Sequence record: LR597660
Length of the DNA: 64,000 nucleotides
Origin: Escherichia phage T4_ev151
Reading direction: 5' to 3' (one strand)
Positions 61,185-64,000 of this stretch are shown here, one piece after another (positions within the stretch are counted from its first letter, which is position 1; each line of letters starts with the position of its first letter). A program made the position numbers and the translations under genes. The notes below the pieces were generated by a model, which worked only from the letters and a program-made list of their open reading frames with translations, made no database searches and was not told the origin of the DNA.

Positions 61185-61658
61185 TTATTTGAATGATTTG
61201 ACGTACTGAATAGAGCCTTTGCTATTCACAAAGGCAATTTTACCATTTTTATTATACATGGTAGCAGTACGCTGATAACCATAAGTTTGTTTACCAGATT
61301 GATAACCAACTAATGCAAAATTATCTTCGCCCATTTTATTCTGTTTAGCGCGGATGCGTTCATGGCCATGTGCCATAAGAACCTTAGCATCACCAGTTGC
61401 AATGGATCGACGAGTTTTTTCATCTTCAACTGTATTAACAAAGTCGTCAAATGAATCAAATTTAGCATGAGATTTATTATACAGTTTTCCATCTACTGCA
61501 TAATTATATCCCTGTACATCCATCTCAACTTCTGTACCATCATCCAATACAGCAGTGATTTTTTGACCTTTTTTAAATTTCAAAAGATCAGTAAAAGATT
61601 CAGCAATAATTTGAGAATTAATAGCTGCTTCAGTAATAAATTCTTGATATGTTTTCAT
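61185..61658 (-). CDS. hypothetical protein
   Basis: 157-aa ORF. Confidence 0.45.
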   Translation of the reverse strand: MKTYQEFITEAAINSQIIAESFTDLLKFKKGQKITAVLDDGTEVEMDVQGYNYAVDGKLYNKSHAKFDSFDDFVNTVEDEKTRRSIATGDAKVLMAHGHERIRAKQNKMGEDNFALVGYQSGKQTYGYQRTATMYNKNGKIAFVNSKGSIQYVKSFK

Positions 61659-61667
61659 ATGTTTCCT

Positions 61668-62084
61668 TTAAATGTAAATATTTTTGCCGTAATACTTGTA
61701 CCAGTGTGGCTTCATTAAAATTTTTTCATCAAGTCGTTGTTGACTCAATTTAATAGCTGATTTGCATGGATTATAATCATTTTTCCATTCTGCTGGAATA
61801 TCGCTGATGTCAGGAACTTCAGTATCTTTTATACTGAACCCGCGTTTTAAGCATTCCGTTATAATGTCTGATTGACGCTTTCGCAAAAATTCTAACTTAT
61901 CGTAAAAGAAAGTAACATGACCAGAACCTAAAATAAACTCGGAAGATATTTTAAAATCTTTAACCCGCTTACCATTTGCAACATGTTTACGAACTATACC
62001 AAAAACACGCGGCAATTCACGGTATTCTGCGATTAAATGTTGATCAGCAAGTTCAGATACTAAAGTCAAATTAATACGAGTCAT
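61668..62084 (-). CDS. denV: endonuclease V (pyrimidine dimer DNA glycosylase)
   Basis: 138 aa; [17 protein letters not shown]...YKYYGK. Confidence 0.9.
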
Positions 62085-62143: not shown

Positions 62144-62674
<531 letters not shown>

Positions 62675-63130
62675 TTAAAAGAGGTTGTTCATTATTCGGT
62701 AAAGTGAAGGACCCATCACATATTGCCACTGAGTACGAGGAATAAGAGCAAAAGCATCCATCTCTGGAATCATAACGCCATCTTTATTTTCAAAATAAGA
62801 CTCACAATAGCAATTTCTGAACATCTCATGCTCTACTGGAATCGTATAATAAAATAACTGTAAGTCTTTATTACTAGAATATTTAAATACACCTAGGTCT
62901 TCTAGAAGGTCTGGATTATAATTGCTAAAACCAGTCTCTTCTAAGCATTCTCTTCGTGCTGCATCTAGTGCGCTTAAATCAGAATTTTCTACACGGCCCT
63001 TTGGAATATCCCAGCGATGTGCCATCATTCCAGGCTTACGAGAACCAGTAACACGACCCATAAATAAATCTTTATCTTCTGTCATAAAGATAATACCAGC
63101 TGATAGTGTTTTCATTTTAATTTCCTGCAA
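62675..63130 (-). CDS. nudE: Nudix hydrolase
   Basis: 151 aa; Nudix box GRVENSDLSALDAARRECLEETG. Confidence 0.85.
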   Translation of the reverse strand: MQEIKMKTLSAGIIFMTEDKDLFMGRVTGSRKPGMMAHRWDIPKGRVENSDLSALDAARRECLEETGFSNYNPDLLEDLGVFKYSSNKDLQLFYYTIPVEHEMFRNCYCESYFENKDGVMIPEMDAFALIPRTQWQYVMGPSLYRIMNNLF

Positions 63131-63474
63131 TCACTCACAAACTCTTTCATTGACTCATTTTCAATATAAGACATGTAGCTATTATATTCCTTTAATTGTA
63201 TTTTGTAATCCTTTTTTCTTTGCCAATTTATTTTAAAATTATCATAATGAAAATATAAAATGATACCAAAGAATGAAAACAATGAAATAATTTTAGTATA
63301 ACAAAGCTCACTCCAAACTTCTGTTATATTTACTGTGCCGTCGATGTTTAAAATAAGACAGTCAATTAACAATCCAAAAAGACTACCCGCAAGAGCTGCA
63401 GCCAACGCCACAGCAAAAATTAAAAATGACTCAGGAAACGAATATTTGACTTTATTTAGTTTTGGCTTTTGCAT
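63112..63474 (-). CDS. small membrane protein (tandem family, C-terminal EFVSDCRK)
   Basis: 120 aa, 2 TM helices. Confidence 0.45.
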   Translation of the reverse strand: MQKPKLNKVKYSFPESFLIFAVALAAALAGSLFGLLIDCLILNIDGTVNITEVWSELCYTKIISLFSFFGIILYFHYDNFKINWQRKKDYKIQLKEYNSYMSYIENESMKEFVSDCRKLK

Positions 63475-63848
63475 CGTGATTCCTTAACAAATTTCATAAT
63501 TTCATTAAATTCATACGCAGCAAGTTTAAGCTGATGTTCCTTTTTAATCTTTTTACACTGAGCTTTCCATTCGCGTACGCGTTTACGATAGTGTCTTCCT
63601 TGATACCAGTATCCTACCCAATTTACAGGTACTAATAAAAATGGAACTACTAATGGAAGAATTAATACTAACAGAAATACTGCGTCTGATTCAATATCAG
63701 TAGTAACATCTATAACTATTCCAATAATCATTAGGATTATAAATGATACAGCTGTCACAGGACCTACTAATACATCAGTAGGAATTAGCTGGCGCTTTAA
63801 TTCATACTTCAACGGTTTACTTGGAAGGTATAGTGATGGTTTTGACAT
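63456..63848 (-). CDS. small membrane protein (tandem family, C-terminal KFVKESRC)
   Basis: track ORF uses non-ATG start; ATG at 63848 (MSKPSLYL) preferred. Confidence 0.45.
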   Translation of the reverse strand: MSKPSLYLPSKPLKYELKRQLIPTDVLVGPVTAVSFIILMIIGIVIDVTTDIESDAVFLLVLILPLVVPFLLVPVNWVGYWYQGRHYRKRVREWKAQCKKIKKEHQLKLAAYEFNEIMKFVKESRCKSQN

Positions 63849-64000
63849 ATTCTCTACATTCCTTAACAAATTTTTCTAGTAATAAATCGCTTTCAAAATT
63901 GGGATTTTCTACGAATTTATCAAAAAGATCATCAACAATAGTTAAGATATTCTTTTTACTAAGAATACGTTTATTTTCATGCTTCGTTTCAGAATCAACT
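63818..64000 (-). CDS. partial ORF, C-terminal end (5' end beyond window); same family (ends KFVKECREYVKTITIPSK)
   Basis: open frame from window edge to stop at 63818-63820. Confidence 0.35.

Follow-up and report, generated by a model that had tools for sequence, protein, structure and literature searches.

About half of the genes of bacteriophage T4 are still without a function, and the variable regions of its genome encode many small membrane proteins, to which roles in host takeover, exclusion or counter-defence are ascribed. Classic studies of the rII and e regions of T4 describe deletions between short direct repeats. T4-type hyperplastic regions also undergo modular shuffling by way of PeSL (promoter-early stem-loop) cassettes, which are intergenic units (PMC2839356, PMC4122927). 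The subject of this analysis is the array of small genes e.5, e.4 and e.3 that precedes nudE and the lysozyme gene e in Escherichia phage T4_ev151 (sequence record LR597660). The stretch of DNA analysed, referred to here as the window, is 64,000 nt long, and all coordinates refer to the whole of it.

Four neighbouring orphan genes of T4-type phages, three of which lie in the window, share with their counterparts in a second genus a short, predicted helical tail at the C-terminus of the protein, and the codons of this tail lie at the junction with the following gene. The explanation that best fits the evidence overall, and to which we give somewhat better than even credence, is an overlapping accessory gene array in which the tail is selected as a protein docking or packing helix and in which the junctions, with their embedded Shine-Dalgarno (SD) sequences, recombine with one another. 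The feature is real and modest, in that it concerns known genes in two closely related genera and is no new kind of system.

Organisation of the e.5-nudE block

The window belongs to a Tequatrovirus (T4-like) genome, and its last 1.9 kb runs counter to transcription, the genes being on the minus strand. In order of transcription they are e.5, e.4, e.3 and nudE, then lysozyme e, with e.2 absent. The three consecutive open reading frames (ORFs) of the initial annotation were all found, and had been described as downstream of nudE when, in the direction of transcription, they lie upstream of it.

63820..64000+, minus strand: e.5 orthologue, last 59 codons and stop, seen in translation and interrupted by the window end; no transmembrane (TM) segment; tail EKFVKECREYVKTITIPSK
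63456..63848, minus strand: e.4 orthologue, ORF of 130 aa with its ATG at 63848; two predicted TM helices joined by an acidic loop, then a strongly basic C-terminal helix, tail MKFVKESRCKSQN
63112..63474, minus strand: e.3 orthologue, ORF of 120 aa; short basic N-terminus, two predicted TM helices, acidic loop, basic C-terminal helix, tail KEFVSDCRKLK
62675..63115, minus strand: nudE (Nudix hydrolase), next in the overlapping series, from the ORF and the annotations of relatives; ATG at 63115, alternative TTG start at 63130
62144..62638, minus strand: T4 lysozyme (gene e), ORF

From e.5 through nudE each gene overlaps the next, as had been noted, by 29 nt (e.5/e.4), 19 nt (e.4/e.3) and 4 nt (e.3/nudE, ATGA). 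ORF calling takes e.4 beyond its ATG at 63848, as far as a TTG at 63869. By megablast the region is matched in 513 phage records, the top one being Yersinia phage ZN18 with 98% identity. The T4 annotation names the corresponding genes e.3, e.4 and e.5 and places e.2 between e.3 and nudE, while GenBank L13089 (1993) gives e.2, e.3, e.4 and e.5 the names msp7, msp6, msp5 and msp4.

A shared C-terminal tail

The three window proteins end in MKEFVSDCRKLK (e.3), MKFVKESRCKSQN (e.4) and EKFVKECREYVKTITIPSK (e.5), in each case up to the stop codon, and conform to a common pattern, Φ-x-x-F-[VI]-x-[ED]-[C/S/I]-R, where Φ is hydrophobic. These C-termini read as they had first been given, and the motif proved to be conserved beyond them, in orthologues from a second genus and in other genes of the same locus.

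63853..63870, minus strand: e.5 motif codons F-V-K-E-C-R, TTT GTT AAG GAA TGT AGA
63474..63491, minus strand: e.4 motif codons F-V-K-E-S-R, TTT GTT AAG GAA TCA CGA, the final base being the A of the e.3 start codon
63124..63141, minus strand: e.3 motif codons F-V-S-D-C-R, TTT GTG AGT GAT TGC AGG

The regular expression F[VI].[ED][CS]R gave three matches in the 332 ORFs of the window (32,002 residues), two of which fall at the ends of the e.3 and e.4 proteins; with the e.5 fragment a third adjacent gene carries the motif, and with e.2, in relatives, a fourth. A looser expression had no match in T4 bases 1-50,000. It might be supposed that lysine-rich, low-complexity tails resemble one another by chance and that the repeated sequence at the junctions (below) is likewise fortuitous, since pairwise blastp E-values are weak and one more repeat among the many in the window would be unremarkable. 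However, chance resemblance is excluded because the motif is so rare and yet terminal in three adjacent genes (four with e.2), and its retention in a second genus and recovery by leave-one-out hidden Markov models (HMMs) leave this explanation effectively refuted.

Mosigvirus (RB69-like) phages have an e.5-e.4-e.3 cluster with the same overlaps, the products of which are 45% (e.5), 60% (e.4) and 36% (e.3) identical to their Tequatrovirus orthologues. Mosigvirus e.4 ends in EFVKEIRCKSLNS and e.3 in NFIKECRK, and e.5 carries QFIMECREYV followed by further residues. An e.2-like ORF of Mosigvirus ends in RFITECRNLR, and the e.2 protein of Tequatrovirus in NNFITECRKLK. A two-TM protein of 101 aa, found only in Mosigvirus and encoded about 2 kb away, ends in LENFIKECRGK, and its gene has no overlapping downstream gene. 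Its motif is written AAT TTC ATT AAA GAA TGT CGA, as against AAC TTT ATT AAG GAA TGT AGA in e.3, and the copies differ among themselves in the codon for Arg (AGA, CGA or AGG) and in that for Cys (TGT or TGC). Because the codons differ and the 101-aa gene has no overlap, the tail is conserved at the amino-acid level and is older than the split between the genera.

The relatedness of the tails was examined with a leave-one-family-out test, in which an HMM of the 16-residue tail was ranked among 309 ORFs. The held-out families were recovered above all unrelated ORFs for e.2 (E 0.0036), the 101-aa protein (5e-6), e.5 (3.7e-4) and Mosigvirus e.3 (6e-6), and Tequatrovirus e.3 was borderline (E 0.34-0.96, ranks 10-11 of 309). 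A hydrophobic stripe, made up of Φ(-3), F(0), V/I(+1) and C/S/I(+4) and followed by R(+5), is present in nine of nine tails with the spacing i, i+3, i+4, i+7. That e.4 carries Ser or Ile at the Cys position speaks for a role in packing rather than for metal or disulfide chemistry. As it is carried also by e.5, which is soluble and otherwise unrelated, the tail behaves as a module.

Besides the Mosigvirus copies, a scan of IMG/VR for the ENFIKECR coding pattern yielded only two 40-codon frames that are probably spurious and one marine protein of 114 aa. The marine protein is encoded on three viral contigs (L024 11995-12017, L025 894-916 and L026 4410-4432) as a conserved soluble protein of about 114 aa with an internal LENFIKECRG, which agrees at all ten residues with the tail of the 101-aa protein of Mosigvirus. 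No PHROG or Pfam family matches the marine protein, and the shared peptide may be either a coincidence or a distant relative of the motif. A separate observation from the same variable region is that just 3′ of Mosigvirus e.3 lie genes for small soluble proteins ending in GAWVSSSALC, QGWVSSSYSC and GGWVASSHTC (L005 2638-2835 and 2845-3150; L011 3307-3579), which form a second tandem set with a common C-terminal motif.

Gene junctions and ribosome-binding sites

A 15-mer had been reported to recur at the gene junctions, and ttccttaacaaattt does occur in exactly two copies in the window, at 63859 as stated and at 63480 rather than 63481; the exact repeat is 16 nt long.

63858..63873, minus strand: 16-nt exact repeat AAATTTGTTAAGGAAT, copy 2; TAAGGA (63860-63865) lies 11 nt before the e.4 ATG (63848-63846)
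63479..63494, minus strand: 16-nt exact repeat AAATTTGTTAAGGAAT, copy 1; TAAGGA (63481-63486) lies 6 nt before the e.3 ATG (63474-63472)
63112..63129, minus strand: e.3/nudE junction TGCAGGAAATTAAAATGA, encoding C-R-K-L-K-stop (TGC AGG AAA TTA AAA TGA) with the ATGA overlap; AGGA is the nudE Shine-Dalgarno sequence

On the coding strand the 16-mer reads AAA TTT GTT AAG GAA T (K-F-V-K-E) and contains TAAGGA, a 6-nt match to the SD consensus. Rather than being a junction element in its own right, it consists of the K-F-V-K-E codons together with the SD of the next gene. The junctions are doubly constrained, because the codons of the motif also hold that SD (TAAGGA in K-E, AGGA in C-R-K).

Window-wide there are 41 exact direct repeats of at least 15 nt, compared to about 5.5 in mononucleotide shuffles, so that the 15-mer is by itself weak evidence. 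Only one of these repeats, the 16-mer, has its copies no more than 1 kb apart (0.35 expected from shuffles), and its weight comes from their placement, in the same frame and in the same position with respect to two gene junctions. In 11 Tequatrovirus loci, in which 20% of sites vary overall, about 40 nt at each of the two junctions show no variation, as would suit DNA that serves both as the codons of the tail and as a translation-initiation region. The e.5 and e.4 tails of Mosigvirus show no comparable DNA identity, so the 16-nt identity is specific to Tequatrovirus and is superimposed on a peptide motif of greater age. An RNA structural element at the junctions was considered and rejected, as the RNAs showed no excess of structure over shuffled sequence (z +1.2, +1.4 and -0.7).

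Such a double use of the same codons raises the possibility that the tail is a by-product of coding, set by the ribosome-binding site and start of the next gene, and that the peptide itself is functionless. TAAGGA or AGGA does lie within the motif codons at every junction, the junction DNA of the 11 Tequatrovirus loci is invariant even at synonymous sites, and in one Mosigvirus-like contig (L011, described below) e.3 has been destroyed yet its 3′ junction end is kept before the next gene. However, an SD accounts at most for the K-E or R-K codons and not for the conserved Φ, F, V/I and C/R, and different copies write the same peptide with different codons. The motif of the Mosigvirus 101-aa protein uses AAA GAA, which contains no AAGGA, and has no overlapping gene to serve, while the many other overlapping T4 genes in the window provide no further C-terminal copy of the motif. 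We consider this explanation rather unlikely, and selection on the peptide as a docking or packing helix the better account of the same junctions.

The position of the motif, always 1-11 codons from the stop and adjoining the downstream start, would also suit a nascent-chain signal for pausing or termination that tunes downstream initiation, possibly by sensing insertion of the TM hairpin some 37-45 residues upstream. TM2 is indeed separated from the motif by 37-45 residues in both e.3 and e.4 and in the 101-aa protein of Mosigvirus, but the distance is just ~20-25 residues in e.2, and e.5 bears the motif without any TM segment. The tail has no similarity to known arrest peptides and, as noted, the 101-aa gene has no overlapping downstream gene. 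The idea is purely speculative and very unlikely to be correct.

The uninterrupted overlaps from e.5 to nudE suggest that these genes are translated in a linked fashion. The best promoter-like sites lie further upstream, ahead of e.6, e.7 and e.8, and a GC-rich perfect hairpin of UUCG type (AGGGGC-CGAA/UUCG-GCCCCT) is found between e.6 and e.5 in a relative (L002 6332-6347). The hairpin, for which several relatives carry an annotation as putative stem-loop or terminator, separates e.6 from the e.5-nudE block.

Gene loss, chimeras and recombination

Most relatives are 485 bp longer between e.3 and nudE, owing to the presence of e.2. Where e.2 is present the e.3/e.2 junction is GATTGCAGGAAAATTAAATGA and the e.2/nudE junction GAATGCAGGAAATTAAAATGA, and the joint in the window is GATTGCAGGAAATTAAAATGA; in phages C2-3 and T4 both junctions read TGCAGGAAA(A)TTAAA(A)TGA. 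The e.2 deletion of the window is precise and in frame, with the crossover within TGCAGGAAA, and its joint is the e.3/nudE junction at 63112..63129. The repeat involved is 9 nt when counted as exact and about 20 nt as near-exact. The same joint was found in six genomes (the window, ZN18, T4_ev240, SA20RB, F13076 and Pu-Krd-SF2), the flanking haplotypes of which are mosaic and do not form one clade. Across the database e.2 is present in 534 records, compared to 643 each for e.4 and e.5, and the latter pair appears to be retained. About one Tequatrovirus record in ten lacks e.2.

Fusion has occurred as well as loss. UFV05 (protein P0101) and UFV11 (L017 1301-1621) carry, in place of e.4, e.3 and e.2, a single gene for a 106-aa e.4::e.2 chimera, in which e.4 residues 1-32 are followed, in register, by the last 74 residues of e.2 (P-V-T / P-A-S). 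The joint is an 8/10-nt microhomology, TCCTGYGWCA, inside TM1, and e.3 is deleted. In the Mosigvirus-like IMG/VR contig L011 (2880-3000), an internal deletion has cut e.3 to a remnant of 16 codons; the last ~75 nt of e.3, including the motif codons and the SD, are kept directly before the next gene. Because similar junctions recur every ~0.4-0.5 kb, they act as short direct repeats for recombination.

Two further disruptions were seen in relatives. The T4 RefSeq annotates e.2 at 102 aa, the gene (locus L003 3473-3961) being truncated by a -1 frameshift in an A-run, with a +1 shift 106 nt further on; past these the tail NFITECRKLK and the junction are intact, and the shifts may be a real disruption or old sequencing errors. 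In ZN18, the closest relative, a frameshift divides e.5 into two overlapping ORFs of 145 aa and 93 aa (locus L001 5218-5833), in DNA that corresponds to the sequence immediately past position 64000 of the window.

Protein architecture and the question of descent

Hydropathy and charge place two hydrophobic segments in each of e.3 and e.4, with a short, acidic loop free of Lys and Arg between them, and the C-terminal tails hold 10 (e.3) and 15 (e.4) Lys and Arg residues. Since the loops are K/R-free and the tails K/R-rich, an N-in/C-in topology is predicted for both. The statement that each of the three proteins has TM segments applies to these two; e.5 shows no hydrophobic segment, either in the window fragment or in its full-length orthologues, and is soluble. 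The full-length e.2 of most Tequatroviruses is 162 aa long, with a soluble N-domain, two TM helices and the tail.

AlphaFold2 (AF2) models give helices at 24-49 and 54-129 in e.4 (pLDDT, the predicted local distance difference test score, 74) and at 13-42 and 46-119 in e.3 (pLDDT 66). Both are modelled as a TM1 helix, a tight turn and a single unbroken helix running from TM2 to the C-terminus, with the motif at its tip. Beyond TM2 the basic helix extends for about 45 residues in the small membrane proteins.

These shared features raise the question of whether e.2, e.3 and e.4 are plain tandem duplicates of one two-TM ancestor, with the motif as the slowest-evolving remnant and without a role of its own, and with e.5 having gained it by fusion. 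The topology and the predicted hairpin-plus-long-helix shape are the same, the N-termini of e.3 and e.4 are alike (MSKPSL and MQKPKL), and the e.4::e.2 chimera is joined in register within TM1. Weak full-length matches also exist: the comparison of e.3 with the e.4 PHROG gave E 0.0017, and the best non-self matches of the e.3 HMM were the Mosigvirus 101-aa protein, e.4 (E 0.012) and e.2. In direct comparison, however, the whole proteins e.3 and e.4 are not significantly similar (blastp E 0.42; hhalign probability 1.8%); the other pairwise blastp values within e.2, e.3 and e.4 were E 0.003 (tail only) and 0.17. With Foldseek, searching AF2 models against BFVD, e.4 retrieved itself and one 119-aa protein (E 7e-4, the identity of the target not being confirmed), while e.3 retrieved nothing significant, e.4 included, leaving the reciprocal search negative. 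As a modelled fold, a hairpin followed by a long helix is so simple that it has no diagnostic value.

The proteins e.2, e.3 and e.4 agree in membrane topology and in the build of the tail, each having two hydrophobic segments, a loop that is acidic and lacks Lys and Arg, and a tail rich in these residues, and what e.3 and e.4 share is this architecture plus a tail of ~10-16 residues. Their common descent is plausible but unproven. Duplication with a functionless motif requires an extra event to place the tail on the soluble and unrelated e.5, and is otherwise mostly compatible with the docking-helix array favoured here, differing from it only over the function of the tail. As a full account of the locus we regard duplication as unlikely.

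Gene families and genomic context

The genes e.2 to e.5 are already catalogued, though uncharacterised. The e.3 protein belongs to phrog_2330 (E 4.1e-59, residues 1-118) and is 80-97% identical to 45 database clusters, including the PP01 entry 'e.3 ... predicted membrane protein' (96%). The e.4 protein belongs to phrog_2604 (E 5.5e-70, residues 1-130); precomputed PF26873 is assigned to 102 homologues, and identity to many relatives is 85-99%. For e.5, all 59 residues that lie in the window agree with the C-terminal end of C2-3 e.5, the full length of which matches phrog_2607 (E 1.4e-109); the protein is 202 aa in relatives and its N-terminal 143 residues lie beyond the window. The e.2 families are PHROG 2203 and precomputed PF26896. 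PHROG families 2330, 2604 and 2607 carry no function annotation.

The family is confined to Tequatrovirus and Mosigvirus. A profile search with e.3 against 1.84 billion representatives gave seven matches, in which the credible e.3 relatives were all Tequatrovirus- or Mosigvirus-like and no wider family appeared, and a scan of IMG/VR using the e.4 alignment gave six loci only. PADLOC assigned the proteins to no defence or anti-defence system, its sole match being a weak one of a 4TM effector on the e.4 TM region (E 0.0085). In the literature searched, no paper was found on e.3, e.4 or e.5 (the msp names included) or on the shared C-terminal tail. In NCBI records the name 'sulfurtransferase' is attached to several homologues of e.3 and e.4, and 'DNA primase' to one e.3. 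No Pfam or NCBIfam profile backs these names; the 'sulfurtransferase' label was treated as a propagated misannotation.

The proximity of lysozyme invites the idea of a holin-like or lysis-timing function for e.3 and e.4, exercised together with e in the manner of class II holins. Their size, two TM helices, N-in/C-in topology and charged C-terminal tail would fit, and they are encoded two to three genes upstream of e. Against this, no holin family is among the PHROG or Pfam matches of e.3 and e.4, and the holin of T4 is the product of gene t. A relative has an annotated T4 late promoter between nudE and e, which would separate late transcription of e from the array, and the best promoter-like sites are those upstream of e.6-e.8. 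Natural isolates also lose e.2 and e.3. A lysis function for these proteins is highly improbable.

Further along in the direction of transcription, the window has no ipII or ipIII between denV (61668-62084) and e (62144-62638), unlike T4, and the internal-protein locus is arranged differently. A 157-aa ORF at 61185-61658 (minus strand) starts with MKTYQEFITEAA, which we take to resemble the capsid-targeting N-terminus of T4 internal proteins.

Proposed mechanism

On the explanation favoured here, e.5-e.4-e.3-(e.2)-nudE is an accessory, fast-evolving array in which each 3′ end overlaps the next start. The products of e.3 and e.4, and of e.2 in relatives, are predicted to be small inner-membrane hairpins of two helices with both ends in the cytoplasm, TM2 extending as a basic helix that carries the motif at its tip; soluble e.5 bears the same motif. 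The motif is probably under selection at the protein level, and its hydrophobic stripe (-3, 0, +1, +4) is most likely a surface for helix packing or docking. Through the tail, the array products may bind one another or a common cytoplasmic partner, the likeliest pair being e.5 with e.4. Roles in accessory interactions with the host would be in keeping with such an array. The genes are probably translated in a linked fashion through the doubly constrained junctions, and repeats at the junctions let recombination delete or fuse cassettes, which is how the phage in the window lost e.2.

Several results weigh against this account. With regard to the tail, the leave-one-out HMM missed e.4 (E 2.3), which has Ser/Ile for Cys, and the amphipathicity of the tails exceeds that of shuffles weakly. 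The AF2 models are of moderate confidence and come from shallow alignments, and the blastp and hhalign comparisons of e.3 with e.4 and the e.3 Foldseek search, all given above, were negative. At the junctions, the SD-to-ATG spacing of 11 nt for e.4 is long, the open junction RNA would allow independent initiation as well as linked translation, and the invariance of the Tequatrovirus junction DNA fits constraint at the nucleotide level as well as at the protein level. Finally, searches of Pfam (a copy without the PF26873 model), NCBIfam and PDB sequences gave nothing for these proteins, and no experiment or database entry gives them a function.

A bolder version of the docking proposal, which we think quite unlikely, is that the tail is a portable C-terminal 'address' module. 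Recombination at junctions would spread it among unrelated proteins (two-TM hairpins, soluble e.5 and the N-domains of e.2), docking all of them to one inner-membrane assembly or host target; alternatively, the peptide might act on the ribosome and so couple the overlapping genes. If the 'address' module were true, the e.2-e.5 array would amount to a combinatorial set of effectors, quickly reshuffled and all using a single docking site. For these orphan genes the shared tail in any case offers a concrete experimental handle, by way of a common partner and of the e.5-e.4 pairing.

Comparison with known systems

The nearest described relatives are e.2-e.5 of T4 itself, of which the window ORFs are orthologues with the same gene order and overlaps; the phage in the window differs in being without e.2. 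In size, two TM helices, cytoplasmic termini and accessory status, e.3 and e.4 are like T4 Imm (two TM helices, superinfection immunity) and the class II holins, but no sequence or profile similarity to either was found.

The overlapping genes are like the coupled pairs of phage and bacterial operons in having ATGA and longer stop/start overlaps and an SD inside the upstream coding sequence. The overlaps of 19 and 29 nt exceed the 1-4 nt that is usual for such pairs.

Like PeSL cassettes, the junctions are short repeats at the borders of accessory genes in T4-like phages that are tied to gain and loss of single genes by recombination. Unlike them, the repeats are coding (tail and SD), are much shorter, being exact over 9-16 nt, and are without a promoter or stable hairpin. 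A PeSL-like cassette was rejected on these grounds, the junctions being coding and overlapping, with no strong promoter-like site or stable hairpin, and the sole hairpin lying between e.6 and e.5.

The recombination events also resemble the classic T4 deletions at direct repeats, as the e.2 joint lies in a 9-nt exact repeat and the UFV chimera at an 8/10-nt microhomology. The repeats here differ from those in the classic cases in being functionally equivalent gene junctions, and it is because of this equivalence that the loss of e.2 left a precise, in-frame joint with the translation signals of the downstream gene preserved. The locus is in this respect a clean natural example of how repeated, equivalent junctions, each comprising a tail and a ribosome-binding site, permit the precise gain, loss and fusion of gene cassettes.

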